A stretch of 64,000 nt of DNA from an uncultured Gammaproteobacteria bacterium (GTDB lineage Bacteria; Pseudomonadota; Gammaproteobacteria; Steroidobacterales; JBCCMA01). This document shows positions 3,586-47,040 of this stretch, in pieces (the stretch's first letter is position 1; each line of letters opens with the position of its first letter). Under the pieces are notes generated by a model, which was not told the origin of the DNA, ran no database searches, and worked only from the letters and a program-made list of their open reading frames with translations. A program made the position numbers and the translations under genes. The stretch covers positions 20,900 through 84,899 of the forward strand of contig CAZXCL010000004.1 in assembly GCA_964639265.1 (NCBI GenBank). The letters run 5' to 3'.

Positions 3586-4260
3586 TTAGCCTGCCGCGCG
3601 TACGCCCGTGCTGTGTTTGGGGCTGGCTCCTTTGCGAAAATAGAACTCAAATGCCTGGTCTCGCTGCCCGGTGAGATAGGGCACAAGATAGAGAATGGCC
3701 ATGGATTCGAGTGCGTGGCAGTGCTTCAGTGGACCCACATCGATGGTCTCAAAGCCCATTTTCTCCACCAGTTCCGCGACCGTCCGCTTGGCATCGGCGT
3801 TGTCGCCGGCCAGCGGCACGGTGACGGCACCGCCGGCGGCCGCCGGGTTGGCCATCACGTGAAACCCCACCGTGTTGAACGCCTTGACGACGTTGGCCGC
3901 CGGCTTGGCGGACTGCAGTTCCTCGGCGGCCGATTCGGCTACCGCCATTTTCATCATGCCGTCGCCGTCGGGAACCAACGCGTTGGTGACATCGATCACG
4001 ATCTTCCCCGCCAGGTCTCCGACTGTTTGCAGTGCTTCGGTCATGCCGCGATAGGGCATGGCAAAGACCACAATATCCGCGTCACGGGCTGCGTCTGCGA
4101 CGGTGACAAGCTGCGCTGCGCTGCCGGTCTGTTGCACCAGTTCGGCCAGGCCCTCGCGCTGTGGGTCGCGTGAGCCATAGACCACATCATGGCCCAACTG
4201 CGCCAGACGAGGGCCAAGTGCGCCGCCGACGCGGCCTGTTCCAAGAATGGCAAATTTCAT
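3586..4260 (-). CDS. NADPH-dependent F420 reductase-like / dinucleotide-binding oxidoreductase
   Basis: 'ILGTGRVG', 'YGSRDP', 'VIDVTN', 'VVKAFNT', 'DVGPL' motifs. Confidence 0.85.
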   Translation of the reverse strand: MKFAILGTGRVGGALGPRLAQLGHDVVYGSRDPQREGLAELVQQTGSAAQLVTVADAARDADIVVFAMPYRGMTEALQTVGDLAGKIVIDVTNALVPDGDGMMKMAVAESAAEELQSAKPAANVVKAFNTVGFHVMANPAAAGGAVTVPLAGDNADAKRTVAELVEKMGFETIDVGPLKHCHALESMAILYLVPYLTGQRDQAFEFYFRKGASPKHSTGVRAAG

Positions 4261-4413: not shown

Positions 4414-6867
4414 CTAGAATCGAGCGCGAAGACGCATGCCATAGTTGCGCGGGTACAGATACGAAGTCTGGACCACGTCGTCGCCATTGTTGTTGCCACG
4501 CGCGAGAACATCGGCGTCCTCGATGTTCTCAATGAAGGCTTCCACGGTGTACATGCCATCCGCTGAGTCCCACATGACTCGCAGATCGGTTTTGGTGAAC
4601 GAGTCCTGCTGATGCGACGGATCGTTGGCCAGCAGGTTGGAGGTGTTGTAGCCGTCCGAGTAGTAGGTTTGCAGATACGGTGTGATCGTGCCCTTGTCGC
4701 CCATGTCGATCAGATAGGCGGCACTGGCGCCCAGCGTGATTTCCGGTGACCACGGGGTTGTGACCCCGGCCTGGTCAATGAAGCCGCGGACTTCGCCGTT
4801 GAACAGCTGATACGGGTTGCTCTGGCCAAACGTGCCGAACTCCGAATCCAGATAGGCGAGGGTGCCGGTAAGGGTCCAGCGATCGGTCGGGACCCAGGTG
4901 GCGTCGAACTCAAGGCCCCAGGCTTCGATGTCACCACCGTTATCCGAAAAGGTGAGCACGATGCCGGTGTTGGGATCCAGCCGCTGCCGCTGCGTGAGCA
5001 GGTTGGTGTACTCGGTAAAGTGCAGCGCACCGTTAATCTGCAGAGTGTTGTCACGCAGTACGCTGCGGAAGCCAAACTCGATGACCTGCGACTCCTGTTC
5101 GTCCGTCGAGGTGGTCGTGCTGGCCGAGCCTGACAGATAGCCTGTAGAGGCTGTGCCATAGATCATGGTGTCGTCGTTCATGTCGTATTCGACACCGGCG
5201 CGCCAAGTGAAGTTGTCGAACTCGGGGATGTTGTCCGTGTCCTGAATCGTGTTGGCGCTGGTGATCGCGTCGCTTGCGCCGCAGTTGTAGGTAAACAGGT
5301 CGCGGGCATTCTCGGGCAGCACCGCAGGCGACGTGCCGGCAATGCCGTCGATAACGTTCACGACACGATCGACCGTGCCGTCATTGTTTTCATCGCCGGT
5401 GAAGTTGGAGCCGCCGCAGCTCGCTGATTTTTCCTCGTCGTTGTAGCGCAGGCCACCGATGAGGCGCAGCTGGTCATTGACCGAGTACTCCACCTGGCTG
5501 TAAATGCCCAGGTAATCCGTGTCGATCTGGACCGCGTTCGCGAAGAAGCCGCCGAGCACGGTGGCGTCAGACACCAGCGGCGTTCCCGAAAGAATCGTGA
5601 ATTCACCCAAGTCAGGAATGGTGACAGTGGGCCGTACAGAATCATCGCGCACGGTCTGCTGGTAGATATAGAACGAGTTGAAGTCTTCCACTGACGAGAC
5701 GTACAGCCCTGCGGTCCACTGCAGGGGACCATCGTGCGTGCTGGTGAGCTGGATCTCCTGAGCAAGGCCCTCCGAAGCTTCCTGGTAGCCACCGTTGGAG
5801 TTTTGCGACGGACTGAAATCAAAGTCGAAATTGATGTCGTTGTTGAAGTCGTTGTAGGCCGTAATCGACTTGAGGCTGAAGTTGTCGAAGTCGTAGGTGA
5901 AGGTCAGTGAGAATTCGTCGTCCTCGAGATCAACCGGGCGCACATAGTCCTGAGAGATGCGCCAGGGGTCGCCGCCGGGGCCGTTGGATGCCGGACCGAG
6001 GCCGCCGGAGCCGCGGACCGGGTTGGCGCAGTTGCGAACCGAGCCAAACGGGTCGGTCAGGCCGTCTGGCGTTTCGTTGCGGCACAAGAAGGTGTAACCA
6101 AACAGACCGGCCTCATTGCCGTCCTCTTCGATGCTCGTGGCGCGGAAGATCAGTTCGGCCCGGTCGCTCGGATTCCAAAGAGCAGTAAAGCGAATGCCTT
6201 TGTCGTCCTGCGCACCGATGTCCGGTCCGGCCAGGTTCTGGATGTAGCCGTCGCTCTTGTCCAGATAGCCAGCGATGCGCACGCCAAAATTGTCGGTGAT
6301 TGGTGCGTTGAAATAGCCTTCGCTGCGGACGCGGTCAAAGCGCTGCGGGCTGATGTCGATACCACCAGAAAATTCCTCGAGGTCAGGCGTGTTGGTGTAG
6401 ACATTCAATGCGCCGGCAAATGTGTTGCGGCCATACAGCGTGCCCTGCGGTCCGCGCAGAAATTCAACGTTGGAAACGTCGAAAAAGCCGCGTGTCTGCT
6501 GCGACGCTCGCGCTTTGTAGATGCCGTCGACAAACGCGCCGACAATCGAGCTGTTGTCACCGAAGGTGTTACTGGAGTTGGCGCCGCGAACATTGAACTT
6601 GGCGTCATTACCCACGAACGCATAGTTCAGGCCGGGGACCAGAAGTTCGAGTCGCGATACGTCCGAAATGCCGCCAAACTGCAGCGCCTCTTCGCCGAGT
6701 GCTGTCACAGAGACACTGACGTCCTGCAGGCTCTCTTCGCGTCGTTCGGCCGTCACGACGACCTCTTCAAGTTGAGCTCGAGCACCGAGCGAACCGGCCA
6801 GCAATGTGGCCGCAATGGCGCAGGACAACGCTTTGCGCCCCGCAATTGGTGAATACAGTCGTGTCAT
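4414..6867 (-). CDS. TonB-dependent receptor (2)
   Basis: Start MTRLYSP; 'LEEVVVTAERREESLQDV'; 'VEFLRGPQGTLYGRNTFAG'; C-terminal Phe; the ORF track's upstream extension is not credible. Confidence 0.92.
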   Translation of the reverse strand: MTRLYSPIAGRKALSCAIAATLLAGSLGARAQLEEVVVTAERREESLQDVSVSVTALGEEALQFGGISDVSRLELLVPGLNYAFVGNDAKFNVRGANSSNTFGDNSSIVGAFVDGIYKARASQQTRGFFDVSNVEFLRGPQGTLYGRNTFAGALNVYTNTPDLEEFSGGIDISPQRFDRVRSEGYFNAPITDNFGVRIAGYLDKSDGYIQNLAGPDIGAQDDKGIRFTALWNPSDRAELIFRATSIEEDGNEAGLFGYTFLCRNETPDGLTDPFGSVRNCANPVRGSGGLGPASNGPGGDPWRISQDYVRPVDLEDDEFSLTFTYDFDNFSLKSITAYNDFNNDINFDFDFSPSQNSNGGYQEASEGLAQEIQLTSTHDGPLQWTAGLYVSSVEDFNSFYIYQQTVRDDSVRPTVTIPDLGEFTILSGTPLVSDATVLGGFFANAVQIDTDYLGIYSQVEYSVNDQLRLIGGLRYNDEEKSASCGGSNFTGDENNDGTVDRVVNVIDGIAGTSPAVLPENARDLFTYNCGASDAITSANTIQDTDNIPEFDNFTWRAGVEYDMNDDTMIYGTASTGYLSGSASTTTSTDEQESQVIEFGFRSVLRDNTLQINGALHFTEYTNLLTQRQRLDPNTGIVLTFSDNGGDIEAWGLEFDATWVPTDRWTLTGTLAYLDSEFGTFGQSNPYQLFNGEVRGFIDQAGVTTPWSPEITLGASAAYLIDMGDKGTITPYLQTYYSDGYNTSNLLANDPSHQQDSFTKTDLRVMWDSADGMYTVEAFIENIEDADVLARGNNNGDDVVQTSYLYPRNYGMRLRARF

Positions 6868-6948
6868 CAGTAACCCCCGGGGAAGTCGCCGTCTGTTCGC
6901 GTGCAAACGGCTCAGCCAATTCAAAAGTGCAGGATCAGTCTGCGTCGA

Positions 6949-6965
6949 TTGTACTCCGAATGCAA
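6949..6965. promoter_or_regulatory. Putative LacI-family operator, site A
   Basis: TTGTACTCCGAATGCAA upstream of TonB receptor 2; matches four other sites in the cluster. Confidence 0.65.
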
Positions 6966-7108
6966 GCCAATGCCGTGCCGGTGCGTCGGAGATTTTCCTC
7001 TGATTCTCGCGAGTTACCGCCAGGATGCCCGGAAATTGGGCGCTTACCGGCACCACATGGTGGCGCCACGGCAGGTTATGTCGCTGACTCCGAAGTACAA
7101 ACGCGGGT

Positions 7109-8146
7109 CTAGGCTGCGCCGCCAGACTGTTCCCGCATGCGGGCAAACAGGTCCACCCCCATTTGTGCGAACAGGTGCACCATGTCGACAAACACCCAGT
7201 TTTCGAGATAGCGCTCCCCCGACCTTTTCCAGAAGTCGAGGCCGTTGATGGCAAGCGCGTTGCCGGTGGCGGCCACACCCAGGTATTCACCGCGATGGGT
7301 CGCTTTGACGCCTGACCAGCCCGGCGAGCCGCTGTATTCGCCTTCACCAATCAGTGCGGTCAGGTCCAGCACGCGTCGATCCGGAAAAGCGTTTAACCAA
7401 GGCCCCTGATGAAGCTGCTGGAAGTCGGCGAGGCTCAGGCAGGCGCCAATGCCGCCGGGACCGTACCAGGCGATGTCTGGCTCAAAAAAGTCAGCCATGC
7501 CCATGCTCTTGAGGTCCGATTCGTCGTAGTCGTTGAGTGTGCCGAACACGAAGCGGCGAATATGATCGAGCGTATAGTCGCTGACTGCGTCGTCTTGTTG
7601 GGCCAGCAACACGCCGTCATTTGCCTTCGGTGCGGGGTAGAGACCTGGCCTGCCGCGCGAGGGTGGCAACACGTTTATACCGGCCTGCTCCATGAGATCG
7701 ACAAAGTCGAACAGTGCGTAGCTCTCGACTATGCGCCCGTTTTCCAGGCGCGCAAATTCGCCAAAGCGCATGGCGATGTCTTCGCCGTTGGGCGGAATGC
7801 CCAGATACGGTTGTTCGAAGCGGCCATGGAAGGTGCCCGTCGCGCCAACCCAATAGTGGCCTTCGTTGCGACCGTCTACACGTCCACTTGAAAGACCGCC
7901 CATGAAGATAAACGACTCCCGCTGGAGATTTTTGAACGCACGGCGCATGGGGCGCCAAACACTATCCACATAGGCCTTGGCGCCGATGACCGTGCCAATA
8001 GGTTGGGGACCGTGCCAGGGCGCTTGCGGATCCAGGTGCGGCTCGAGCAGGGCGAGCAGGTCGCCATCGTCTGCGCGGTCCATGGCATTCCACAGGTCCC
8101 ACACCTGTTGCTTGTTGCGCTGATTCAGATCGCTGTGATCGCTCAT
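7109..8146 (-). CDS. Two-domain SnoaL-like ester cyclase (NTF2 fold)
   Basis: 'GTFHGRFEQPYLGIPPNG', 'WYGPGGIG', 'THRGEYLGVAATG', 'ENWVFVD'. Confidence 0.85.
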   Translation of the reverse strand: MSDHSDLNQRNKQQVWDLWNAMDRADDGDLLALLEPHLDPQAPWHGPQPIGTVIGAKAYVDSVWRPMRRAFKNLQRESFIFMGGLSSGRVDGRNEGHYWVGATGTFHGRFEQPYLGIPPNGEDIAMRFGEFARLENGRIVESYALFDFVDLMEQAGINVLPPSRGRPGLYPAPKANDGVLLAQQDDAVSDYTLDHIRRFVFGTLNDYDESDLKSMGMADFFEPDIAWYGPGGIGACLSLADFQQLHQGPWLNAFPDRRVLDLTALIGEGEYSGSPGWSGVKATHRGEYLGVAATGNALAINGLDFWKRSGERYLENWVFVDMVHLFAQMGVDLFARMREQSGGAA

Positions 8147-8670
8147 GGCGTGTCTTCCTTTGCTGCAGGGCGTTGATCGTATTGCTCCCAGCCGTGTCCG
8201 TTGAACGGGTCGATCCCAAGCTGTTGCATCACGTGTGGGAAATCGACCATGACCCAGTTGTCGACGATCTTGCCGTCCACCACTTTCCAGAAGTCCATGT
8301 AGCGAATCTCAACGCGTTTGCCGGTCGGGGCGATGCCCATGAAAGTGCCGCTGTGGGTGGCTTCCTGACGACCAAACGCTGCGCACCACTGACCTTGGGT
8401 AAGACGCGCCTCGTCGATGCACACCTTGTCCGAGAACGCCGCCTGAAACGGCCGCTGCCAGTTGTCCTGAAATTCTCGCAGGCCGTTTTTTACGCCGCAG
8501 CCGGCATTGCCCATCCAGCGAAACGTCGGCGCGAAAAAACGATCCATGTGTTCGATGTCGTGATCATTGAGACCATCGACCATGGCGTCGATGACGCCGA
8601 GCGTTTCAGCCGTTTTCGTCAGGTCGTTGTCCCGTGTCAGCTCGCCCTGCTCGGGGCGTGAGCCCTTCAT
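8143..8670 (-). CDS. Single-domain SnoaL-like ester cyclase
   Basis: 'THSGTFMGIAPTGKRVEIRYMDFW', 'DNWVMVD'; start moved to ATG 8670; 4-bp overlap with next gene. Confidence 0.85.
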   Translation of the reverse strand: MKGSRPEQGELTRDNDLTKTAETLGVIDAMVDGLNDHDIEHMDRFFAPTFRWMGNAGCGVKNGLREFQDNWQRPFQAAFSDKVCIDEARLTQGQWCAAFGRQEATHSGTFMGIAPTGKRVEIRYMDFWKVVDGKIVDNWVMVDFPHVMQQLGIDPFNGHGWEQYDQRPAAKEDTP

Positions 8671-8772
8671 GCTGCGCTCCGATTGCCGCTGCCTGGCCAG
8701 GCACGGCGGGGCGACGTGGGTGGGTCGGGAAAAGTCGTCATTCTGGCATCCTCCAGCGGTGATCGGTTGTTT

Positions 8773-8788
8773 TTGCATTCGCAGTCAA
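8773..8788. promoter_or_regulatory. Putative LacI-family operator, site B
   Basis: TTGCATTCGCAGTCAA (reverse complement TTGACTGCGAATGCAA) in the divergent intergenic region. Confidence 0.55.
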
Positions 8789-8831
8789 CATGAGTAACAT
8801 GTGGCTTTCCCGGGCGCAATGGTGGTATCTG

Positions 8832-9866
8832 ATGACGGTGGACACCGACAAAATCCAGAAGGCCAAAGACGTCGTGCGCGCCTGCCATCGCGACGTGGAC
8901 GGCTGCGCTGACGATCAGCTCGAGGCGACGCTCGCTCGACACGTTAGCGCCCACTACCGCTGGCGCGGCATGCGTCCTTTCTACGAGCAAGCCGGCTCCG
9001 AGGCCGTGGTCGCTGCGTTCTGGCGGCCGTTACGTCAGGCATTTACGGCGCTTACTCGACGCGAGGATGTGTTCATCGCCGGGCACAACGACGCATCGCA
9101 TGATGGTGCCGAAATCTGGACGGCCAGCATGGGGCATTTTGTTGGGTTGTTCGACGCGCCATGGCTGGGTATTCCGGCTACCGGCCGCATGGCTGCGCTG
9201 CGCTACGCGCAGTTCGATTGTGTTGCCGACGGCGCCATCGAGAGTAGCGCGCTTTTTTGCGACGTCATCGGGGTGATGCAGCAGGCCGGCTGCTATCCGT
9301 TACCAGAGCAAACCGGCGCAGCACATATGTATCCCGGGCCGCGCACTCACGACGGAATTCATCTGGCGGCAACCGATCCGCAGCATGGGCACGACACGCT
9401 TGCGCTGATCAATCGCATGATCGACGACTTGAGCGCCTTGAACGACAGCGGCGAGGATCACTGCTCGCCTGAGTATCTGGCGCGTTGCTGGCATCGTGAC
9501 ATGGCCTGGTACGGCCCGGCAGGTATTGGTTCAACCATGACGATTGAGCGTTACCAGCAACAACACCAGTATCCGTTTCGCGAACAGCTCAGTGACAAAC
9601 GCTTTCTCGGGCACGTCGCGCGCATCGCGGAGGGCAATTACGGCGCGTTCTTTGGCTGGCCCAATCTGACCAATCGTTCCACTGGCGGTTTTCTGGGATT
9701 GCCGGCCAGCGCCACGGCGTGCGAGATGCGTGTGGTCGATGTGTTTCGTCGCGATGGCGATCGGTTGGCAGAGAACTGGGTGTTTATCGATCTGCCGCAC
9801 TATCTGGCGCAACAGGGGCTTGACGTGCTCGATCGATTGCAACGGCTGCGTCAGGGCGGCGGGTGA
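8832..9866 (+). CDS. Two-domain SnoaL-like ester cyclase
   Basis: 'WLGIPATG', 'WYGPAGIG', 'ENWVFID'; paralogue of 7109-8146. Confidence 0.85.
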   Translation: MTVDTDKIQKAKDVVRACHRDVDGCADDQLEATLARHVSAHYRWRGMRPFYEQAGSEAVVAAFWRPLRQAFTALTRREDVFIAGHNDASHDGAEIWTASMGHFVGLFDAPWLGIPATGRMAALRYAQFDCVADGAIESSALFCDVIGVMQQAGCYPLPEQTGAAHMYPGPRTHDGIHLAATDPQHGHDTLALINRMIDDLSALNDSGEDHCSPEYLARCWHRDMAWYGPAGIGSTMTIERYQQQHQYPFREQLSDKRFLGHVARIAEGNYGAFFGWPNLTNRSTGGFLGLPASATACEMRVVDVFRRDGDRLAENWVFIDLPHYLAQQGLDVLDRLQRLRQGGG

Positions 9867-11185
9867 GGTTCATTGCTTCGTTGTGGCTTGCGCTGGCACT
9901 GTGTGCCTGCGCAAGCACCTTGCCGCGTGCTGCGAGTGACTACACGTCGCTTTCAGACTTTTCAATCACGGCGCTGCGTGAACGCACTTACGGTTCGCCG
10001 CTGGGTGTCGAGCAGGTTGTCCGTTCCGAGGTGTATCCATCGTCACTGGTGTCCTACCAGTCTGACGGTTTGCGCGTCTACGCCCGCTTGGATTTGCCCG
10101 CTACCGACGGACTGCCTGAGGGCTATCCGGTTGTCGTGTTTTTGCACGGCTGGCGCGGCATCGACGCGGCGCCCTCCCTGGGCTTTTACTACGACCCTGA
10201 ATCGTATTACCACGACATGGTCAACGCCTATCGCGAGGCGGGCTTTGCCGTCATCACACCCGGCTATCGCGGCCACGGTACGGTCAACGGCCGGCCCGCC
10301 GACGGGCTTGATGACATGGCACGGTGGGATCAGGGCAGCTACCTGATTCCGGTGCTCTACGCCGTGGACGTTATGAATCTGCTCGACGGGCTGGCGTCTG
10401 TACATCCCGGCAAACTCGATCTTTCACGGGTGAATCTCGTGGGCCATTCGCAGGGTGGTGACGCCGCGCTTGTGGTTGCCGCGGTGGCCAGCGGAGGATC
10501 AGGTCTCAGACAGCGGATCAACGCCGTCTCGATATGGAATGGACTGGTCGCACCGCGTCTGGAGCAGGCGCAGGTGTATGCGCTTTTGCAAAACAGTGCG
10601 ACTGCGTTTCTCGCAGGGGATGGCACATGGACCGGTGCGGCGCAGGGCGCAAATGGACAGGTCAATCGGGAGTTTGTGTTTGGCTGGCCGCCAGAGTGGA
10701 TTGAAACGCCCCATCCGTCAGAGTGGACGTGGCAGCACGACACCTGGGGCAAGAGCGCGCATGAGGCGCTCGAAGAGGCAATGGGCAAGTTGTACGGCGC
10801 CGTCAACGACAACCTGCCAGCGCTTGCCGACGCGCGCTACGTCGTTTCGCGCCACGCCGATGGGTCGCCGGTGGTCCAGCATGATCCTCGGGTGGCGTCG
10901 GGACTGGCGGCCACGCACGCCGCACATAGGCCCGGTGACCTCGCTGTACCGGTAAATGTGCATTTTTCTGATCGCGATATCTATTCTCTTGTGCGCTGGA
11001 ATCGGCAGCTGTGCGCGGCGATCAAGCAGGCGGGTGGTGCCTGCCGTGCTTATGAATATCCTGGCAACACGCATCGGCTGCGCTTGAGTGAGCGAGCATG
11101 GTTTTCCCAAAAGCAGCACCGTGAAGGTTTTGCCGACGCGGTCAGTCGCGACGTCGTGCTCTTTCGGACTAGATCAGAGCGTTAA
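9863..11185 (+). CDS. Alpha/beta hydrolase lipoprotein (peptidase S9/esterase-like)
   Basis: Lipobox LCAC; 'VVFLHGW', 'PGYRGHG', nucleophile motif GHSQGG, 'YPGNTH'. Confidence 0.8.
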   Translation: MRFIASLWLALALCACASTLPRAASDYTSLSDFSITALRERTYGSPLGVEQVVRSEVYPSSLVSYQSDGLRVYARLDLPATDGLPEGYPVVVFLHGWRGIDAAPSLGFYYDPESYYHDMVNAYREAGFAVITPGYRGHGTVNGRPADGLDDMARWDQGSYLIPVLYAVDVMNLLDGLASVHPGKLDLSRVNLVGHSQGGDAALVVAAVASGGSGLRQRINAVSIWNGLVAPRLEQAQVYALLQNSATAFLAGDGTWTGAAQGANGQVNREFVFGWPPEWIETPHPSEWTWQHDTWGKSAHEALEEAMGKLYGAVNDNLPALADARYVVSRHADGSPVVQHDPRVASGLAATHAAHRPGDLAVPVNVHFSDRDIYSLVRWNRQLCAAIKQAGGACRAYEYPGNTHRLRLSERAWFSQKQHREGFADAVSRDVVLFRTRSER

Positions 11186-12776
11186 ACAGCCACAGCAGGC
11201 CCATGCAAAACGCAAAGTAGCCAATCATCAGCAGGCTGATCGAATCGAGCCTGCCGGCCACGTTGTACCAGCCGCCCACTTTTTCCGGTAGGCCCTTTTC
11301 GCGATGCAGTTTGAGCTGCCCGGGCACGCTATGCGGTGACCATTGTTCCTGTTTGCCATCGAGAATCAGGCTGGCAGCCCAGGCGACGACGATGTTGGCG
11401 CTGGCGCCGATCAGCGTGAACCACGGCCAGGCGATCGATGTGCGCGTGGCCACATACCACACCAGAATGAAGCCGGCCGCGACACCGATAAGAAGTCCAC
11501 GTTCGGTCGTATGGCGAGAGAAAAACCCCATGCCGTACATGGCGAGTTTGGCGCCGACAAAGTAGGAGCCAAGCTTGCTGAGGATCTCAAGAATCGAGCC
11601 CTCCGTGCGCGAAAACAAAATCGCCGGAATGATGATCAATACGGCCCACAGCAACGTGAATCCGCGCGATACCTTCAGCAATTGCTGATCCGAGGCATCG
11701 GCTTTGACGTAGCGCTGATAAAAATCCACGGTCGCCACGGTGGCCATTGAGTTGAGCGAGGAATCCAGCGTCGACATCGACGCCGCCATCACCGCCGCCG
11801 CAATCAGTCCCATCAAACCGGGCAGGCCGTACTCGGCGGCAAACTCGAGAATGATGGTGTTGCCGTTGTCAAATTCGCGGCCGTCGTAATAGGCGAAAAG
11901 CAGTACGCCGAGAACGATGAAAATGAAGTAGATAAACGGCGAGACGAAACCCATCATCAGATAGGATTTTTTCGCGTCGCCGATGTTTTTCGCTGCCAGC
12001 GTTCGCTGCGCCATCATCTGGTTCACGCCATACACCGTCACGTGGAAGATCGTCATCGCAAAAATGCCGGACCAGACGGTGGAAACTTCGGTGAAATCAA
12101 AATTGAAATTGAACGGATCAGTTTTGCCCTGAGCCTTGAGCGCAATCAGGGTGTCGTGTAGCGGCATCGGTAGTCGATCGATGAGTGCGTACAAGATGAT
12201 GCCGGCGCCCACAAACAGAATGATTGCCTGTACCACGTCGGTCCAGATCACGGCCGCGATACCGCCCATCATGGTGTAGATCAGTGCAATGATCGTTACG
12301 ATGAAAATGGCATACAGCACATCGATGCCGGTGATGAACTGCAAGACAAGCGACGTTGCGTACAAGATCGCCGCGGCGCTGAAGCCCTGCGAGATCAGGA
12401 AAATGGTCGCGATGACTGAGCGCGACTTGGAGCCAAATCGCCGCTCTTGATAGTCATAGATTGACGCCACACCGCTGTTGTAGAAGAACGGCAGGAACAG
12501 CGTGATTACCAGAACGATAACCAGCGGATAGTTCATGTGGATCAGGATGACCGACATGCCTTCGGTGTATGACCACGCGGGTCCACCAAGAAACGACAGT
12601 GCACTGACGTAGGTCGCGACAACGGAAACACCAATGGCCCACCACGGTGTGTCGCGTCGACCCAGCGCATAGTCTTGCGCTGTTTCCACTCGACGCCCGA
12701 GCACGAAGCCCAACACCAGATTGCCCAGAATGTAGACGATAAGAATCGTCCAGTTCAGTGTGCCAAATTCTGCCAT
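11169..12776 (-). CDS. Sodium:solute symporter (SSS family)
   Basis: Many hydrophobic segments; 'SALSFLGGP', 'GGIAAVIWTDVVQ', 'NQMMAQR', 'AASMSTLDSSLNS'. Confidence 0.92.
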   Translation of the reverse strand: MAEFGTLNWTILIVYILGNLVLGFVLGRRVETAQDYALGRRDTPWWAIGVSVVATYVSALSFLGGPAWSYTEGMSVILIHMNYPLVIVLVITLFLPFFYNSGVASIYDYQERRFGSKSRSVIATIFLISQGFSAAAILYATSLVLQFITGIDVLYAIFIVTIIALIYTMMGGIAAVIWTDVVQAIILFVGAGIILYALIDRLPMPLHDTLIALKAQGKTDPFNFNFDFTEVSTVWSGIFAMTIFHVTVYGVNQMMAQRTLAAKNIGDAKKSYLMMGFVSPFIYFIFIVLGVLLFAYYDGREFDNGNTIILEFAAEYGLPGLMGLIAAAVMAASMSTLDSSLNSMATVATVDFYQRYVKADASDQQLLKVSRGFTLLWAVLIIIPAILFSRTEGSILEILSKLGSYFVGAKLAMYGMGFFSRHTTERGLLIGVAAGFILVWYVATRTSIAWPWFTLIGASANIVVAWAASLILDGKQEQWSPHSVPGQLKLHREKGLPEKVGGWYNVAGRLDSISLLMIGYFAFCMGLLWLFNALI

Positions 12777-12807
12777 GCTGCTACCTGAGTGTTAGTGCGA
12801 AGGATGC

Positions 12808-13542
12808 CTAGCGCGCGGTCCAGCCGCCGTCGACGCGCAGGCTGTGGCCGGTGACCATGCGCGCACCTGGAGAGACCAGATACATCAGCGCGCTGACAAC
12901 GTCGTCGACACGCCCAATTTCGCGCAGTGGAATCATGTCCATGACCGAGTTAAAGAACTCAGGATCATCAAGCATGGGTTTGGTAAGCGGCGTCTCGATA
13001 AAGGTGGGCGCGATGGCATTAACCCGGATGCCGCTGGGCGCCAATTCCACCGCCATGGCCTTGGTCAAACCCTCGATGGCGTGTTTGGTCATGCAGTACA
13101 CGGTGCGATTGGCGGCGCCGATATGACCCATCTGCGATGACATATTGATGATGCGCCCCGGTATCTTGTCCCGCAGCATGGCACGTGCGGCGGCCCGGGC
13201 AATGCGAAATGCCGAGCGCACGTTGAGATCGATGACAAAATCCAGAGAGTCGTCATCCACCTCGACGAAGGCCTGGGGGCGATTGCCGCCTGCGTTGTTG
13301 ACCAGAATGCTCAGTCCGTCGAGTGCTTCGATTCGTGTTGGCAATTCGTCGGAGCAGACGTCGGCAGACCATCCTTCAATACGCTGTGGATCGTGGCTTG
13401 CAAGTTGATCGAGATCATCCGGCGAGCGGGCAATGGCGATGACGCGCGCACCGGCGTCGGCAAGGGCGTGGACGCAGCCGCGGCCGATGCCACGACTTGC
13501 TCCAGTGACGACAGCGAGCTGGCCTTCAAGAGGCGTAGACAT
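12808..13542 (-). CDS. Short-chain dehydrogenase/reductase
   Basis: TGASRGIG, NNAG, YCMTK, VDGGW; start at ATG 13542. Confidence 0.92.
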   Translation of the reverse strand: MSTPLEGQLAVVTGASRGIGRGCVHALADAGARVIAIARSPDDLDQLASHDPQRIEGWSADVCSDELPTRIEALDGLSILVNNAGGNRPQAFVEVDDDSLDFVIDLNVRSAFRIARAAARAMLRDKIPGRIINMSSQMGHIGAANRTVYCMTKHAIEGLTKAMAVELAPSGIRVNAIAPTFIETPLTKPMLDDPEFFNSVMDMIPLREIGRVDDVVSALMYLVSPGARMVTGHSLRVDGGWTAR

Positions 13543-13555
13543 GTCAGGCTCCAGA

Positions 13556-13571
13556 TTGCATGCGGATGCAA
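13556..13571. promoter_or_regulatory. Putative LacI-family operator, site C (SDR/lacI divergent region)
   Basis: Near-perfect CG-centred palindrome TTGCATGCGGATGCAA. Confidence 0.7.
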
Positions 13572-13627
13572 TATTGCCTAACATCATTGCTGAATACCGA
13601 CGGCACTTCAACAACAGGGCGACATAC

Positions 13628-14671
13628 TTGGGCGAAGAATCCAGCGACGACAAAGCGCCGCGGCAAACTCGCAAGCGCGCCAACTCTTACGACGTCGCGC
13701 GTCTTGCTGGCGTTTCGCAGTCTGCAGTGTCGCGCGTTTTTCAGCCAGGCGCCAGTGCCTCCAAGGAAATGCGCAGTCGCGTTCTCAAGGCGGCCAAGAA
13801 GCTGGGTTATCGGCCCAATGCCATCGCGCGTGGCTTGATTACCCAACGCTCGGACATGGTCGCCGTGCTCATCTCGGTGCAGACCAATCTCTACTACCCC
13901 GAAGTGCTGGTGCAGCTAACCAAGCGTTTCTCCGAACGCGGTGTACGTGTTTTGCTGTTTGCCCTTGAGCATGAGGGTGACATTGAATCCACGCTTGAAC
14001 AGGTGTTGCGCTATCGCGTGGACGGTGTCGTGACGGCTGCCATGTTGTCGCCCGAGCAGCTGGCGACAATCGAATCGGTCGATATCCCTGTGGTGTTTTT
14101 CAACCGCACGCTGGCCGATGCGCCGGTCAACTCGGTGCGCTGTGATCAGGAGGAAGGTGAGCGCTGGCTGGTGCGCCAATTGCACGAAGCGGGTCATCGC
14201 CGCTTTGCCATTGTTACCGGCCCGGATGATTCGCCCGTGAGCACGGAACGCACCCGCGGCGCGACGCGCATGCTGCATGAGCTGGGTGTCAGAGATTTTC
14301 GCGTCGTGAACGGCGACTACAGTTACGCGAGTGGGCGTACGTGCCTCGCGCAGCTTATGGCCTCCGCAGAAGGCGCACCCGATGCGGTGATTGCCGCGAA
14401 TGATGCGATGGCGATCGGGTGTATCGATGAGGCGCGTGCGAAGTTCGGGCTGCGCGTTCCTGAGGACCTGTCAGTGGTGGGGTTCGACGGCATCGGCCCA
14501 TCCGCGTTCGATGCCTACGCCCTCACGACCATTCGCCAGCCGGTGGCGCGTATGACCGACGCCACCGTTTCGATGTTGCTTGATCGAATTGAAAACCCCG
14601 ATCTGGCGCCGGAGAAACGCGTGTTTTCCGGTGAGCGTCGTGCGGGGCGCTCGGCGCGGCTGAGCACGTAG
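13628..14671 (+). CDS. LacI-family transcriptional regulator
   Basis: 'YDVARLAGVSQSAVSRVF', 'LGYRPNAIARGL', 'VPEDLSVVGFDG', 'LTTIRQP'; TTG start is approximate. Confidence 0.93.
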   Translation: MGEESSDDKAPRQTRKRANSYDVARLAGVSQSAVSRVFQPGASASKEMRSRVLKAAKKLGYRPNAIARGLITQRSDMVAVLISVQTNLYYPEVLVQLTKRFSERGVRVLLFALEHEGDIESTLEQVLRYRVDGVVTAAMLSPEQLATIESVDIPVVFFNRTLADAPVNSVRCDQEEGERWLVRQLHEAGHRRFAIVTGPDDSPVSTERTRGATRMLHELGVRDFRVVNGDYSYASGRTCLAQLMASAEGAPDAVIAANDAMAIGCIDEARAKFGLRVPEDLSVVGFDGIGPSAFDAYALTTIRQPVARMTDATVSMLLDRIENPDLAPEKRVFSGERRAGRSARLST

Positions 14672-14705
14672 ATTCCAAGCAAAGTAACACAACGGGCGTA
14701 GTGCA

Positions 14706-15851
14706 ATGCAGATCAGTCGTGACCGAATCCTGACCACTCACGTGGGCAGCCTGCCCCGATCAGCCGATGTGACCGACACGGTGTTTGCGCTTGAAAAGGG
14801 CGACACGGTAGCGAACGCCGACGCGATCTTCAGCGCTGCGGTGGATGCCGTGGTCAAGCGTCAGGTGGACGTTGGCGTTGACGTGGTCAGTGACGGTGAG
14901 ATGAGCAAGATCAGCTATGCGACCTATATCAAGGATCGCATTAGTGGTTTTGACGGAGACAGTGAGCGCGATCCACCCAGCGATCTGCAGGAGTTTCCGG
15001 GCTTTCTTGAGCGCCAGGCGCAGTCGGGCGGTACGCCCAGCTATCGTCGGCCATGCTGCGTGGGAGATATCCAGGTCAAGGACACCGGGCCCGTTGAGGC
15101 GGATCTGGCCAACATGCGTCGCGCGATTGCAGCGCACTCGCCGCACGAGGGATTCATGAACGCGGCCTCCCCGGGTGTTATTGCTCTGTTCCAGCCTAAT
15201 CATCACTACCCGTCGCATGAGGCCTATCTGGCGGCACTCGCCGACGCCATGGCGTATGAGTACAAAGCGATCGTCGACGCCGGTCTGGTGTTGCAAATCG
15301 ACTCTCCTGATCTTGGGCTCGGACGACACATGCTGTTCAAGGGCAAGCCCGACGAGGACTACGTGCGACTTGCGTCCGCCCACGTCGAGGCCCTCAATCA
15401 CGCGTTGCGCGATGTGCCCAAAGACCGCGTGCGGTTGCACGTGTGCTGGGGCAATTACGAAGGGCCGCATCACCACGACGCACCCATGTCGCTCGTTTTG
15501 CCCGTGGCGCTCAAGGCCGACGTTGGCGCGCTGCTGTTTGAATCGGCTAACCCGCGTCATGCGCACGAGTGGGCTACGTTTGCTGATGCTTCGTTACCCG
15601 ACGATCTGGTGCTCGTGCCGGGTGTGATCGATTCGACTACCAACTTTGTCGAGCACCCCGAACTGGTTGCGCAGCGACTGATTCAGTTTGCAAACATCGT
15701 GGGGCGCGAGCGGGTGATCGCCGGCACCGACTGCGGCTTTTCCACGTTTGCGGGCTTTGGCTCGGTGGATGAAGATATTGTTTACGCCAAGCTCGGCAGT
15801 CTGGTCGAGGGTGCGGCATTGGCGAGCCGGCAGCTCTGGGGTGGTCCATGA
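14706..15851 (+). CDS. Cobalamin-independent methionine synthase II family (single-barrel MetE-like zinc enzyme)
   Basis: 'THVGSLPR', 'SDGE', zinc ligands in 'HVCWGN', 'FESAN', 'TDCGF'. Confidence 0.88.
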   Translation: MQISRDRILTTHVGSLPRSADVTDTVFALEKGDTVANADAIFSAAVDAVVKRQVDVGVDVVSDGEMSKISYATYIKDRISGFDGDSERDPPSDLQEFPGFLERQAQSGGTPSYRRPCCVGDIQVKDTGPVEADLANMRRAIAAHSPHEGFMNAASPGVIALFQPNHHYPSHEAYLAALADAMAYEYKAIVDAGLVLQIDSPDLGLGRHMLFKGKPDEDYVRLASAHVEALNHALRDVPKDRVRLHVCWGNYEGPHHHDAPMSLVLPVALKADVGALLFESANPRHAHEWATFADASLPDDLVLVPGVIDSTTNFVEHPELVAQRLIQFANIVGRERVIAGTDCGFSTFAGFGSVDEDIVYAKLGSLVEGAALASRQLWGGP

Positions 15852-16609
15852 GTTTGAGCGCATCCGCGTTTCGCGCGGCGATTGTCGGGCGCGAACTGGT
15901 CGTCGGCACATTTCTCAAAACGCCGTCGTCGATCATGTGCGAGGTGTTCGCGCACAGTGAGCTCGATGTTCTGTGTCTTGACGCCGAACATGCGCCGTTT
16001 GGTCATCTTCAAATTGACCAGTGCGTGGCCGCACTGCGGGCCGCACGGCGACCGTCGCTGGTGCGCGTGCCCGATCACTCGGAGACATCCGTGCGCAATG
16101 CGCTCGATTGTGGCGCGACGGGTATTCTGGTGCCGCACGTGCACAGCGCCGAGCAGGCACAACACATCGCGCGCGCGGCCCATTTCGGTCGAGGAGGTCG
16201 TGGATACGCCGGCTCGACCCGTGCCGCCGGGCTTGGCACCAAGCGCATGGGTGATCACCTGAAAGACAGCGCCGAACAAACCACGGTGATTGTGCAGATC
16301 GAAGACCCCGAAGCGCTTGGCAACGTGGCGCAGATCGCCGCCGTCGACAACGTCGATGCTCTTTTTGTCGGGCGCATCGATTTGGCCGTGTCACTGGGCC
16401 TCGATGCGTCTTCGCCAGAACTGCTCGAGATTGTTGCGAAGATCTGTGCGGATGCCGGTGATACCTGTGTCGGCATGTTTACGCCGTCGCTGGATGAGTT
16501 GCCGCGCTGGCGCGAAGCCGGTGCCAGCTTGTTTTTGCTCGGCTCCGATCACGCGCTGTTCCTCGACGCAGCGAACTCACTCGCGCGCAAGGTGCGCGCG
16601 GCGACCTAG
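15848..16609 (+). CDS. HpcH/HpaI aldolase family protein
   Basis: 'DAEHAP', 'LVRVP', 'VQIE', 'FVGRIDL'. Confidence 0.88.
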   Translation: MSLSASAFRAAIVGRELVVGTFLKTPSSIMCEVFAHSELDVLCLDAEHAPFGHLQIDQCVAALRAARRPSLVRVPDHSETSVRNALDCGATGILVPHVHSAEQAQHIARAAHFGRGGRGYAGSTRAAGLGTKRMGDHLKDSAEQTTVIVQIEDPEALGNVAQIAAVDNVDALFVGRIDLAVSLGLDASSPELLEIVAKICADAGDTCVGMFTPSLDELPRWREAGASLFLLGSDHALFLDAANSLARKVRAAT

Positions 16610-17532
16610 AGCGGTTCGAGTTCGGTCAGTCGATAAAAGCGCAGGGCGTTGTTGACGAATACATCGTTGCGCTGCGCGGCATCCAGATCTGTCGTCAGAG
16701 CTTCGAAAGCATCGTAGAGTTGCGCGTAGCTCGCGTGCAGTTTGTCAACCGGAAAGTTCGAGCCAAACATGCAACGCTGTGGCCCGAACACCTCGAGGCA
16801 GGTCTCGATCAGGGGGCTTAAGGACTGCACAGACCAGTTGTGATCGAACATGCCGAACCCCGACATTTTGCACACGGTGCGCGGGCGTTCGGCCAGGCGC
16901 TGCAGGCCGGCGCGCCAGTGGGCGAGCCCCGCGGGTGACTGATCCCACGGTGAGCCGGCGTGACACAGGGCCACATCCAGATCCGGAACGGCCTCCAGTG
17001 CGTCACTGACCGCGGCCATTTGTGTTGGGATGAGCTGCAGATCGAACGACAGATTGCGCTCGGCGAGTAGTGCAAGACCGCGTCGCCACTGTGGGTTGGC
17101 GGGCAACGCACCGCTGCCGGTTTGCGCATCTTCTTCGGCCGAGCGCCCAACAATCTGGCGCACACCACGCAGCTGCGGCGCTTCAGCGTGAGCATCCAGT
17201 GTGGATTCGGCGGCGGGTTTTTCCAGATCGCAATAGGCGACGATGGCGCTGGGCAAGCCCGTGCGCTCGGCGATGCTCTGAAGCCAGCGCGTCTCGTCGA
17301 CTTCGCGTCCGGGTGCAGCGCCCACCTGTATATGCACCGAGCCCAGCAAGTCAAAATGCTCGGCATCTGTGCGCAAATCCGCCGGCAGATAGTTTTTAGC
17401 GATAGGGGCTGGGTCGCCGAAGAAACGCCGCACTCCCTTGGCCATAAGCCACGGATACTCCACGGCATTGAGGTCCCACAAATGGTGATGGGCATCGACA
17501 ATGCGTCGCTTGGTGGAGGTTGAATCACTCAT
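16606..17532 (-). CDS. Amidohydrolase_2 family protein (sugar-lactonase-like)
   Basis: 'DAHHHLW', 'LSFDLQ', 'HAGSP', 'MFGSNFPVD'. Confidence 0.87.
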   Translation of the reverse strand: MSDSTSTKRRIVDAHHHLWDLNAVEYPWLMAKGVRRFFGDPAPIAKNYLPADLRTDAEHFDLLGSVHIQVGAAPGREVDETRWLQSIAERTGLPSAIVAYCDLEKPAAESTLDAHAEAPQLRGVRQIVGRSAEEDAQTGSGALPANPQWRRGLALLAERNLSFDLQLIPTQMAAVSDALEAVPDLDVALCHAGSPWDQSPAGLAHWRAGLQRLAERPRTVCKMSGFGMFDHNWSVQSLSPLIETCLEVFGPQRCMFGSNFPVDKLHASYAQLYDAFEALTTDLDAAQRNDVFVNNALRFYRLTELEPL

Positions 17533-17541
17533 GGCAATCCT

Positions 17542-18501
17542 TCACAAGATCTGGGCAAGCACGCCAAGCTGGTCAAACACGGTCCACTGCGCGGTGATCT
17601 GTCCATCCATGGTTCGCCAGTGCGTGGCACCGAGAATGAACACGCGTTTGTCGCTGGCCGCTGCGCCCAGATAGGTGCCGGTGTGTCGGGCGCAGGCTGT
17701 CCAGCGCACCGCGATTGAAGCGTCTGTCGGCTGATCCGGGGGGATGGCGACGTGGTCAACCTGCAGGGCATCCACCGCAAACGCGTCGCGTAGTTGTTGA
17801 TACTGAGCGCACAGGGCGTCGCGCCCCGAATGCAGGTCGTCCGCCGCAGCATGCAGTGCCGCATAGGGAGCGAAGTGTTCTTCGATAACTGCGTCGTCGC
17901 CGCTGATCCACTGCGCTTCGAGAATGCGCTGGGCCAGCGCGTGCTCTGACTCGCGCACGCGCGTTGTTTCGAGTCGCGAGAGTTCCTGGTCGATCCACCG
18001 GGTGGTCTCGTCGCTGCGACTGTCGCGCAGCGTGGTGGCTGCCGCGATCAGGTCGATGTCCAGCTGACGCGCAAGGGATGCGCCGTCACGCATGAGCCAT
18101 TCGCGTACAATTATGCCGTCGCGTACCTCGCAGTCCGCGATGGTCATGACGCGAGCCTGGTGACCGGTTGCGGGGCCAAAAACAGACGCGCCCAGATTGG
18201 TCATGGTGCTGATGATCCGGTGCGATGAGTAGTAGCCCGACTGGCGCGAGCCGTTCCAGATCACCTCGTCGCCGACGAGGATTCGATCGGGGAAACTTGC
18301 CAGCATGGCCTTGGTGCCGTCGACGACGGCCGCTGCGCCAACGGTGACGCCAGATAACGCGTAAATCGGGGCCTGCGATCCGTAGTAGTCGTGGATGCGA
18401 TCGAGGCCGCGTTGCTCCCAGATTTCGTAGGTAATGCCCAGGATGAAGTCGACGAGGGGGTCGCCGGGACCGTATTTGGCGCGCTTGGCTTGATCGGGCA
18501 T
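17542..18501 (-). CDS. Two-domain SnoaL-like ester cyclase
   Basis: 'FILGITYEIWEQR', 'SFPDR', 'FGPATG', 'HTGTYLGAAAS', 'WTVFDQL'; start at ATG 18501. Confidence 0.8.
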   Translation of the reverse strand: MPDQAKRAKYGPGDPLVDFILGITYEIWEQRGLDRIHDYYGSQAPIYALSGVTVGAAAVVDGTKAMLASFPDRILVGDEVIWNGSRQSGYYSSHRIISTMTNLGASVFGPATGHQARVMTIADCEVRDGIIVREWLMRDGASLARQLDIDLIAAATTLRDSRSDETTRWIDQELSRLETTRVRESEHALAQRILEAQWISGDDAVIEEHFAPYAALHAAADDLHSGRDALCAQYQQLRDAFAVDALQVDHVAIPPDQPTDASIAVRWTACARHTGTYLGAAASDKRVFILGATHWRTMDGQITAQWTVFDQLGVLAQIL

Positions 18502-18530
18502 CGTAGTTTTCCGAGCTGATTCGAGTGCCA

Positions 18531-18547
18531 TTGTACTTCGGATGCAA
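18531..18547. promoter_or_regulatory. Putative LacI-family operator, site D
   Basis: TTGTACTTCGGATGCAA. Confidence 0.7.
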
Positions 18548-18621
18548 AGCAACACAAGCTGTATATTACGGGTGTTGGGGCCAGACGAGCCGCGTTGCCT
18601 GGGTGATGCCTTGAATCAGTA

Positions 18622-18637
18622 TTGCATTCGAAGTACA
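18622..18637. promoter_or_regulatory. Putative LacI-family operator, site E (inverted relative to D)
   Basis: TTGCATTCGAAGTACA = reverse complement TGTACTTCGAATGCAA. Confidence 0.7.
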
Positions 18638-18671
18638 TTCAAAGCTCTATCAATCACGGCGCATTGGCGCA

Positions 18672-19703
18672 ATGTCTGAACCCGAACATCCCTCCACCGA
18701 CGTGCCGTCTGCGTTGACAGACTGTTTCGTTCGCTACGACGAGTTGCGACCGTGCACCACTGCGTTTATCGATACGCGCACGCCCGGGAGTGAGAAGAAA
18801 GAGAACTTCACGATCATCGGTCCAGGCGTATCGGAGAGCCCGGACCAGCACGTGCACATCAACGTGCCTCACGGCTTCAACATTGGCGCGGCGCGGCAGC
18901 CACCTGGCTGCATCAATTCGCAGCACAGCCACGAAACCGCCGAAGTCTTTTTTGTGCATTCGGGCACATGGGCCTTCACGCTGGGTGAAAAGGCGACCGA
19001 CGGTACGGTGGTCTTGCATCCCGGTGACACGATTTCTATCCCGACCCAGGTCTTCCGCGGCTTTGAAAATGTCGGTGACGACACGGGGCTTATTTTTGCG
19101 GTGCTTGGTGGTGATGATCCCGGGCACGTGATGTGGGCGCCAGATGTGTTCGAGCGAGCAGCCACCTACGGCCTGATCTTGCTCGATGACGGCTCGTTGG
19201 TGGACACCACGCGAGGTGAGGCTGTCCCGGAGGGCAAGACTCCGCAGGCACCAACGAGCGCCGAGCAGGTCGCCGCATTGCGCAGCATGACGGCGGATGA
19301 TCTGGCCGCGTGCGTGGTGTCGCAGGATGGCATGACGTGGCGCGCTGCTCGGGCGGCCGTCCAGGGTGTAGAGGAAGCCGCCATCATTGGTATGGGTAAC
19401 CGTGACATCCGCGAACCGGCTGCTCCGCTCGACTGGTCGCACGGCTTCTGCGCGGTGCGTATGCGCGTTGCATCGGATGGAACGACACAGTGGCATCGTC
19501 GCGATGAGGAAGAGGTCATTATCGTGCATCGAGGGCAGCTGAGCGTGCACACCGCGGATGGCGCGCTTGAGTTGCGCCAGGGGGATGTACTGACCGTGCC
19601 GCCCGGCATGATGAGAAAATTTTGTGGCACCGGTCAGGCTGCCGCTGATGCGTTCGTGGTTCGGCGTGGTGATTGCCCGCAACCACTGCATCTGGAATCG
19701 TAA
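18672..19703 (+). CDS. Bicupin domain protein
   Basis: Cupin motifs '[13 protein letters not shown]...[10 protein letters not shown]' and '[12 protein letters not shown]...[12 protein letters not shown]'. Confidence 0.82.
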
Positions 19704-47039: not shown

Positions 47040-47040
47040 G

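Follow-up and report, generated by a model that had tools for sequence, protein, structure and literature searches.

What controls the transport and catabolic gene cluster around a LacI-family gene in an uncultured gammaproteobacterium, and does a nearby TonB-dependent receptor belong to the same regulon? The window analyzed here is a 64,000-nt stretch of contig 4 (positions 20900–84899) from an assembly of 4,459,902 bp (60% G+C, 179 contigs); positions given below without a contig or locus are those of the window. An earlier note on this DNA described five intergenic copies of a CG-centered motif sharing the half-site CGRATGCAA, proposed that they bind the LacI encoded at 13628, and held that they tie the receptor into one regulon. 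Our analysis supports the prediction that the motif is the operator of this neighboring LacI (13628–14671). We consider it likely that the five sites, together with a weak sixth, are operators of the local repressor, most of them built into core promoters in two architectures.

All five motif strings were recovered from the window, each with the half-site CGRATGCAA intact, and they remain intergenic when gene starts are corrected. Site A (6949–6965, TTGTACTCCGAATGCAA on the plus strand) lies 80 nt upstream of the TonB-receptor ATG; read toward that gene it is TTGCATTCGGAGTACAAT (6948–6965), with a −10-like TACAAT at 6948–6953. Site B (8773–8788, TTGACTGCGAATGCAA on the minus strand; TTGCATTCGCAGTCAA) is a 16-bp near-palindrome between divergent SnoaL operons. 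Site C (13556–13571, TTGCATGCGGATGCAA) is a palindromic operator 13 nt upstream of the ATG of an SDR dehydrogenase gene, where it abuts the ribosome-binding site, and 57 nt upstream of the lacI TTG. Sites D and E share the intergenic region between divergent genes starting at 18501 (minus strand) and 18672 (plus strand). Site D (18531–18547, TTGTACTTCGGATGCAA on the plus strand) reads TTGCATCCGAAGTACAAT toward its gene (18530–18547), with a −10 sequence TACAAT at 18530–18535, and is 28 nt upstream of the ATG at 18501. Site E (18622–18638, (A)TGTACTTCGAATGCAA on the minus strand) is 32 nt upstream of the ATG of a bicupin gene; with its promoter it spans 18611–18639 on the plus strand, the operator TTGCATTCGAAGTACAT occupying 18622–18638. 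The other arm had been described as often one base longer, which is true of A, D, and E relative to the 16-bp forms at B and C. The symmetric form of the operator is TTGCATTCGAATGCAA and the asymmetric form TTGCATTCGAAGTACAT.

A degenerate sixth copy (CTGACTCCGAAGTACAAA, 7084–7101, plus strand) scored 14.4 bits and is among the 10 matches of at least 14 bits found in the whole genome by matrix scan. It shares the intergenic region of site A, 134 bp away and inverted, pointing away from the receptor and into a convergent gene at its 3′ end. Divergent site pairs at TonB-receptor genes occur in other loci, and the sixth copy is probably either the remnant of such a cassette or an auxiliary site. 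The earlier note had overlooked this copy, the reading of the longer arm as a −10 box, and the conserved distance between D and E.

By itself the shared 9-mer is weak evidence and is not significant within the window, where its count of five compares with a shuffle mean of 2.43 and was reached in 10 of 100 shuffles. Across the genome it occurs 54 times, which gives 0.14 copies expected in 11.7 kb; the extended motif is missing from the remaining 49 copies, among them those on contig 57 and at position 17602 of contig 4. The 13-mer ACTNCGRATGCAA is found four times in the window (shuffle mean 0.05; none of 100 shuffles reached four), and these are its only copies in the genome; likewise, all three genomic copies of TGTACTNCGRATGCAA are at this locus. 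In this genome the extended forms are confined to the locus; the earlier note had named equal frequency in unrelated intergenic DNA as an outcome that would refute its proposal.

The genome-wide scan suggested in that note gave a concordant answer. We used position-weight matrices trained solely on 80 loci of other genomes, class I for the asymmetric form and class II for the palindromic form. In the 4.46-Mb genome the class I matrix placed E (34.3 bits, the matrix maximum), A (29.0 bits), D (28.9 bits), and B (22.0 bits) first; the fifth-ranked match scored 18.7 bits, and nothing else in the genome reached 20 bits. The palindromic matrix recovered C (24.8 bits) and B (23.8 bits) along with two sites elsewhere. 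Computationally, the motif is real. The two additional sites are palindrome-like and intergenic: TTGCATTCGAAGGCAA (26.5 bits) on contig 12 at 14628–14643 (5029–5044 of locus L108), upstream of a MarR gene and cytochrome bd, and TTGCATTCGGCTGCAA (20.7 bits) on contig 51 at 8983–8998 (4984–4999 of locus L109), upstream of a DUF7931 gene. Neither had a counterpart at one mismatch or fewer in five ortholog-bearing genomes, and one other stray site was seen in genome G003; we treat both palindromes as chance or strain-specific.

The motif is also conserved with the regulator. Scanning one genome per species (tblastn, E ≤ 1e-3), we found 241 stretches encoding a relative of this LacI and used the best 80 (53–79% identity). 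With the window these form a set of 81 loci, covered in 21-kb segments, numerous contigs being incomplete at their ends; the counted loci are from metagenome-assembled genomes (MAGs) labeled Woeseiaceae, Gammaproteobacteria, Pseudomonadales, Ca. Azotimanducaceae, and similar, some of them sponge-associated. At least one site is present in 79 of the 81 loci. Near the LacI orthologs the 9-mer occurs 238 times in 1,393,326 bp, compared with 16.9 copies expected at the density of the present genome, and nearly every copy belongs to one of three extended forms: ATGTACTTCGAATGCAA or TTGTACTTCGAATGCAA (55 and 18 identical copies, respectively), the palindrome TTGCATnCGrATGCAA, and TTGACTTCGAATGCAA. 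One MAG holds loci L029, L033, and L104, and another L047, L048, and L103, with LacI orthologs of 66–71% identity; the presence of two or three such loci per MAG indicates that regulator and cluster have been duplicated within genomes.

Closer relatives allow motif and regulator to be compared genome by genome. LacI orthologs (51–79% identity) occur in eight of 40 related genomes, which represent eight families of the order, and the next-best LacI matches in these relatives reach at most 39% identity. The 15-mer GTACTKCGRATGCAA is present in nine of 41 related genomes, exactly the nine with a LacI ortholog (51–100% identity; G000, G003, G009, G014, G022, G026, G030, G033, and G037), and in none of the 32 without one, including G005 and G015, whose best LacI matches are 39% and 36%. 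A reversed-pattern control for the 15-mer gave one match in total. Ortholog groups were fixed before the 15-mer was counted, and because related genomes are not independent we claim no P value for this match. All nine ortholog-bearing genomes have a site of 23–34 bits upstream of the bicupin ortholog. Two complete genomes, G024 and G040, encode a bicupin ortholog (55% identity) and have zero LacI matches; their 4-kb bicupin loci contain nothing of 8 bits or more with either matrix. The presence of sites at 79 of the 81 loci, the nine-genome match, and the disappearance of the bicupin site without LacI together support the prediction that the sites bind the LacI at 13628. As for the two complete genomes themselves, the neighbors of the G024 bicupin gene (annotated locus L119) are unrelated to the genes of the regulon, and the G040 locus is L118.

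The predicted binder of all sites is a 347-residue protein (plus strand, TTG start). It has a helix-turn-helix domain (PF00356, 50.2 bits against a cut-off of 27) and an effector domain (PF13377, 100.8 bits; PF00532, 88.1 bits), and it aligns over its full length with solved LacI-family chains (best E 1.3e-42). We assign the motif to this protein because it is the sole DNA-binding protein among the conserved genes of the locus. Of the 81 orthologs, 80 have an identical recognition helix (VSQSAVSR), and all have an identical hinge (PNAIAR-G-LIT) except at G69 (G in 77, S in four); this invariance of helix and hinge fits one shared DNA specificity. Within the hinge segment YRPNAIARGLIT, L70 is present in 81 of 81 orthologs and may be the counterpart of the PurR/LacI lever leucine that inserts at the central CG step. 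The description of the motif as a LacI-type, CG-centered operator also held, site C and its orthologs being 16-bp palindromes centered on CG.

Which genes the operators control was assessed by counting a site if it lay within 300 nt upstream of a projected start. The gene map was built from Pfam and NCBIfam, with starts refined by the N-termini of orthologs. A site precedes the bicupin gene (18672–19703, plus strand; ATG 18672, site E) in 60 of 60 cases, with homologs in 60 of the 81 loci, and the TonB-receptor gene (4414–6867, minus strand; ATG 6867, site A) in 38 of 39 (homologs in 39 loci). The counts are 72 of 81 for LacI, 54 of 59 for the SDR dehydrogenase (12808–13542, minus strand; ATG 13542, site C; homologs in 56 loci), and 64 of 78 for the tandem SnoaL gene of the 17542 type (17542–18501, minus strand; ATG 18501, site D; homologs in 66 loci). 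The sodium:solute symporter (11169–12776, minus strand), which lies with the SDR under site C, has a site in 30 of 83 cases and homologs in 70 loci. Second genes of operons carry almost none: the lactonase-like Amidohydrolase_2 gene under site D (16606–17532, minus strand) has one in 45 (homologs in 48 loci), and the histidinol-dehydrogenase-family, HpsN-like dehydrogenase gene under site E (19729–21003, plus strand) none in 51 (51 loci). The MetE-like gene (14706–15851, plus strand) and the HpcH-type aldolase gene (15848–16609, plus strand) come after lacI and have no separate site, and sites were counted at two of 78 and none of 55 of their homologs (75 and 55 loci, respectively). Sites thus stand upstream of the regulated operons and of the regulator's own gene. 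Upstream regions of orthologs, which the earlier note had proposed to compare, keep their sites before the bicupin and receptor genes, and the tie to the TonB receptor holds across genomes because the sites precede operon-first genes and not the later ones.

Two further operons diverge from site B. The leftward operon consists of a single SnoaL gene (8143–8670, minus strand; homologs in 31 of the 81 loci) followed by a tandem SnoaL gene of the 7109 type (7109–8146, minus strand; 44 loci), and the rightward operon of a tandem SnoaL gene of the 8790 type (8790 or 8832–9866, plus strand; 48 loci) and an alpha/beta hydrolase gene (9863–11185, plus strand). The open reading frame (ORF) of the 8790-type gene opens at 8790, orthologs start near its residues 15–23, and its start is probably ATG 8832 (M15). 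Similarly, 42 of 50 ortholog alignments place the dehydrogenase start at 19729, and the longest ORF (from 19624), which overlaps the bicupin gene, is probably too long. A sulfatase gene (21024–23273, plus strand) also lies under site E. The operator set marks out the genes that form one unit, among them the TonB receptor, and parts a conserved core from local passengers, namely the alpha/beta hydrolase (four of 81 loci) and the sulfatase (17 of 81). Four SnoaL/NTF2-like genes occur in this one regulon, three of them tandem two-domain genes, and they stand beside the LacI ortholog in 31–66 of the 81 loci. In foreign loci, strong motif copies were also seen before DUF1501 genes (L033, 3687–5030; L038, 4130–5473; L080, 3653–4996) and before sulfotransferase and pterin-binding protein genes (L042, 2777–3907; L101, 4198–5142). 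These may be accessory members of the regulon, hinting at sulfate-ester or methyl-transfer chemistry.

How the operators sit in their promoters was examined with 116 asymmetric sites, chosen by a fixed expression and read as TTGCAT-TCG-AAGTACA. At positions −11 to −7 these sites have T, T, G, A, and A in 68, 72, 80, 71, and 64 of 116 cases, a TTGAA block of 0.43–0.62 bits per position that is fixed at exactly 17 bp before TACAWT. The sixth position of the −10 element, which lies beyond the palindrome, is T in 78 of 116. Read toward the gene, the composite is TTGAAn-N5-TTGCATTCGAAG-TACAWT, which supports a promoter frame of −35-like and −10-like hexamers set 17 bp apart, the operator taking up both the spacer and the −10 element. 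The longer arm would then be constrained twice, as a half-site and as TAnnnT, and this fusion of operator and −10 box would explain why a homodimeric repressor has a strictly conserved asymmetric site; the locus offers a compact natural example of such a putative fusion. Orientation agrees with this arrangement. Matches scoring 16 bits or more number 224, with 220 of them outside coding homology; a labeled gene lies only ahead of 59 matches, only behind 20, on both sides of 141 (nearer ahead in 117), and on neither side of four, and among the 220 sites with a labeled neighbor, 176 are directed at that gene or, where there are two, at the nearer one. Start codons follow the −10 element at a median distance of 37–38 nt in the bicupin and SnoaL genes and of 83 nt in the receptor gene. 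Rfam gave zero matches at gathering scores in window positions 1–30000, so a riboswitch does not account for the long TonB-receptor leader. Site E fits the full frame (TTGAAT at 18611–18616, 17 bp, TACATT at 18634–18639), and site D has a passable one (TTGTGT, 16-bp spacer, TACAAT).

The palindromic form appears to meet the promoter differently. The predicted lacI promoter consists of TTGCAT at 13556–13561, a 17-bp spacer, and TAACAT at 13579–13584, and TAnCAT at 17-bp spacing is kept in 37–39 of 55 orientated palindromic sites; the region between LacI and SDR holds 51 of the 98 palindromic sites. Because the TTGCAT arm doubles as the −35 element of lacI, lacI is predicted to repress itself. 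On the plus strand of site B, TTGCAT (8773–8778), 16 bp, and TAACAT (8795–8800) look like the promoter of the gene starting at 8832.

These arrangements suggest a mechanism. Without inducer, a LacI dimer would occupy core promoter elements and thereby exclude RNA polymerase at five transcription units. In the asymmetric 17-bp architecture (A, D, and E), the operator would lie inside a sigma-70-type promoter with its longer arm serving as the −10 hexamer; in the symmetric 16-bp architecture (C and, roughly, B), the TTGCAT arm would be the −35 element, with TAACAT 16–17 bp downstream. Polymerase would be excluded by the bound dimer in both. The units predicted to be repressed are the TonB receptor, the two SnoaL operons at site B, and the SDR-symporter unit, and further the tandem SnoaL-lactonase unit and the bicupin-dehydrogenase(-sulfatase) unit; LacI would also repress its own lacI-MetE-like-aldolase operon. 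We infer the physical binding, the repression, the transcription starts, and the inducer of this scheme; what the computation shows directly is the motif itself, its conservation and link to the regulator, the target genes, the orientation of the sites, and the fixed −35-like block. Public sequencing runs comprised three holding DNA, all from one study, and none listed as holding RNA.

The paired sites D and E raise the further question of whether two bound dimers act together. The note had offered separate control of each divergent arm or looping. The first is supported, as each site points at its own gene within its own −35/−10 frame. The second would add to, rather than replace, the explanation of the sites as core-promoter operators of LacI: dimers on D and E, about 88 bp apart, would touch either directly or by way of a bending protein and would jointly repress the two promoters. 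In the window the CG-to-CG distance is 90 bp. Among 43 divergent SnoaL/bicupin pairs it is 86–91 bp in 37 (87 bp in 11, 88 bp in 13, 89 bp in five, and 90 bp in six), and its interquartile range, 87–89.5 bp, is tighter than those of the site-to-start distances in the same loci (45.5–58 and 44.5–52.5). From locus to locus the sequence separating the −35 blocks is practically random (158 pairs of equal length; mean ungapped identity 0.32), no third conserved block, such as a CRP site, was seen within 40 bp upstream of the sites, and pairs 86–89 bp apart recur at TonB-receptor genes. A fixed length despite a randomized spacer hints at cooperation of bound dimers. Several observations nevertheless argue against a loop. 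Alignment with E. coli LacI pairs residues 18–319 of 347 with 4–306 of 360, leaving 28 residues beyond the alignment here compared with 54 in E. coli LacI; no tetramerization bundle is apparent in this tail, which is too short for a LacI-type tetramerization helix. The 86–91-bp spread is about half a helical turn, which is loose for a phase-sensitive loop; other pair types, at 96, 106, 130, 174–178, and 207–208 bp, lack a common phase; and the fixed length could reflect two promoter upstream regions set back to back. We therefore regard a cooperative pair or loop as possible, though doubtful.

The assignment of the longer arm to a −10 box has to be weighed against a second alternative, in which this arm is a half-site specified by the protein (TACAA one base further out) and the promoter lies elsewhere, for example with TTGCAT as −35 and a −10 element about 18 bp downstream. 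Several findings weigh against the promoter-embedded operator that we prefer. Only E in the window has a good −35; the corresponding position at site A is ACGGCA, a poor match, and site B misfits the asymmetric promoter frame. E and D each match eight of 12 sigma-70 consensus positions, and a strict sigma-70 consensus scan of 6800–18800 found 0 promoters, against a shuffle mean of 3.3, so that the promoter assignment rests on conservation and not on consensus strength. Of the 220 sites, 44 point away from the nearer or only labeled gene. TTGAAT resembles the half-site TTGCAT, and the "−35" block may itself represent a third half-site. Most counts come from the very 80 loci used to train the matrices, the independent tests being the scans of the window's own genome and of relatives only, and gene labels came from crude ORF calls and BLAST to the window proteins. 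Motif and LacI always travel with the locus, and co-occurrence alone cannot separate LacI from another protein encoded there. Finally, GTAC in the odd arm is nearly invariant in the asymmetric class, more conserved than a −10 box with its TAnnnT requirement demands, and the repressor probably reads this arm as well.

That last point favors the alternative half-site, and others lean the same way: TACAA shifted by one base differs from TGCAA at one position, TTGCAT is a plausible −35 at lacI and site B, there is a weak A/T enrichment at +24 to +29 of the asymmetric sites (at most 0.34 bits), and E. coli lac O1 is a precedent for an asymmetric operator. The downstream A/T signal is, however, outweighed by the TTGAA block 17 bp before TACAWT; the T at the sixth −10 position falls outside any symmetric operator; of the 116 sites, 71 have T and 33 have A at the position where the half-site would want A; and the orientation bias toward the gene is strong. 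On this evidence we judge the protein-specified half-site unlikely, and an operator fused to the −10 box remains the better account of A, D, and E. That another factor binds the motif, or that it is repeated or mobile DNA lying near lacI by accident, is very improbable: the two palindrome-like copies beside unrelated genes on contigs 12 and 51 would fit it, whereas the phyletic match is perfect (nine of nine genomes with a LacI ortholog, none of 32 without), the motif is gone at the bicupin gene where LacI is missing, its type is the LacI-family norm (PMC4052901), other DNA-binding proteins are absent among the conserved genes, the asymmetric form reaches 20 bits nowhere else in the genome, and a site of the contig-12 type was not found at one mismatch or fewer in G003, a genome of the same genus.

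Set beside described LacI-family systems, the regulon is familiar in outline. According to Ravcheev 2014 (PMC4052901), even palindromes are reported for 1251 of 1303 LacI-family regulators, with a CG center for 1173; the 16-bp CG-centered even palindrome is the commonest form (range criterion 16–22 bp), odd-length motifs account for about 4% of regulators, and autoregulation for 72%. An even palindrome of 16–22 bp with central CG is found at site C and at 98 palindromic sites in the 81 loci, and the asymmetric A, D, and E agree with it only in one arm and the CG center. Like the local RegPrecise sugar regulons of that survey (PMC4052901), the present system has its repressor gene inside the controlled catabolic and transport cluster, a 16-bp CG palindrome, autoregulation as predicted, and sites tens of base pairs upstream of first genes; unlike them, most of its sites belong to a fixed 17-bp asymmetric variant. 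Judged by the sequence criteria tested, it is a local autoregulated LacI-family regulon of the Ravcheev kind. What is new is the lineage together with the motif, the putative fusion of operator and −10 box, the length-constrained divergent pair, and the enzyme set; neither the orthologous group nor the motif was found in a search of the full-text literature. As regulation the system is textbook, and its interest lies in the pathway and the fixed spacing.

Three well-studied cases help to place those features. E. coli lac O1 is a pseudo-palindrome with one arm displaced by one base relative to the symmetric operator, and O1 and O3 take part in looping. The sites here share the one-base offset and the presence of two operators about 90 bp apart, but the protein lacks the C-terminal tetramerization stretch, the operators overlap the predicted −10 or −35 element where in lac the operator lies downstream of the start, and each paired site has its own predicted promoter. 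GalR, a dimeric LacI-family repressor, acts in the gal repressosome at two operators roughly 100 bp apart (113 bp). The present pair is comparable in having a dimeric LacI-family repressor at two operators at about this distance, and differs in its spacing of 86–91 bp, an architectural protein or a loop not being in evidence. In Xanthomonas and Caulobacter, carbohydrate utilization loci with TonB receptors are under LacI-family repressors. There, as here, TonB receptor, inner-membrane transporter, catabolic enzymes, and LacI form one regulon, but the enzyme set of the present locus matches no described pathway.

What that pathway might be is suggested by a few of its enzymes. No NCBIfam equivalog model of specific function passed its curated cut-off for these proteins; only the generic sodium/solute-symporter and histidinol-dehydrogenase-domain models did. 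For the Amidohydrolase_2 protein, 4dlf is the best relative among solved structures, and the nearest NCBIfam model, L-fucono-1,5-lactonase, is below cut-off. A glucose-1-dehydrogenase-like SDR, a lactonase-like amidohydrolase, an HpcH aldolase, and a symporter together suggest non-phosphorylative sugar oxidation. Among solved chains, the histidinol-dehydrogenase-family protein matches HpsN (sulfopropanediol dehydrogenase, E 1.5e-118) ahead of HisD (E 2.2e-76). The diagnostic motif given in PMC11382572 is G-R-Y-A/S-H for HpsN and G-S-A-P-L for HisD. The protein reads GKYPM at this position and so fails the motif; we rejected its identification as HpsN (DHPS 3-dehydrogenase), and it may represent a third substrate class. 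The bicupin had zero matches among solved structures at E ≤ 0.01; it has more than 5,900 metagenomic relatives, named only "cupin domain-containing." A full-text literature search returned nothing relevant linking HpsN with a cupin or sulfoquinovose with a LacI operator. As substrate, a sulfonated or otherwise anionic sugar-like compound is only a reasonable guess.

The pieces can be assembled into one larger picture, which we offer with little confidence. In it, a non-tetrameric, dimeric LacI would cooperate or loop across an approximately 88-bp spacer of free sequence and shut both cassettes, and the regulon would encode an undescribed route for an anionic, possibly sulfonated, sugar-like compound that is widespread in marine-sediment Woeseiaceae-like and other uncultured Gammaproteobacteria. 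The candidate enzymes of the route, put forward equally tentatively as part of this picture, would be the HpsN-like dehydrogenase with the variant motif, the bicupin, the four SnoaL/NTF2-like proteins, the MetE-like protein, the lactonase, and the HpcH aldolase. The motif itself provides a tractable handle on a gene cluster that is common in uncultured marine-sediment Gammaproteobacteria.

The remainder of the window contains a number of other genes. Directly downstream of the regulated receptor are a second TonB-dependent receptor gene (812–3475, minus strand) and an NADPH-dependent F420-reductase-like gene (3586–4260, minus strand); neither is conserved in the other loci (one of 81 for each), and neither has the motif. 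Farther along lie a GGDEF/EAL protein of 1388 amino acids (38584–42750), another TonB receptor (43007–45835), an RND efflux pair (45960–50136), GH30 and GH16 glycoside hydrolases (52055–55168), HPPD and fumarylacetoacetase-type genes (56218–58339), and a bacteriophytochrome histidine kinase (58413–60698).

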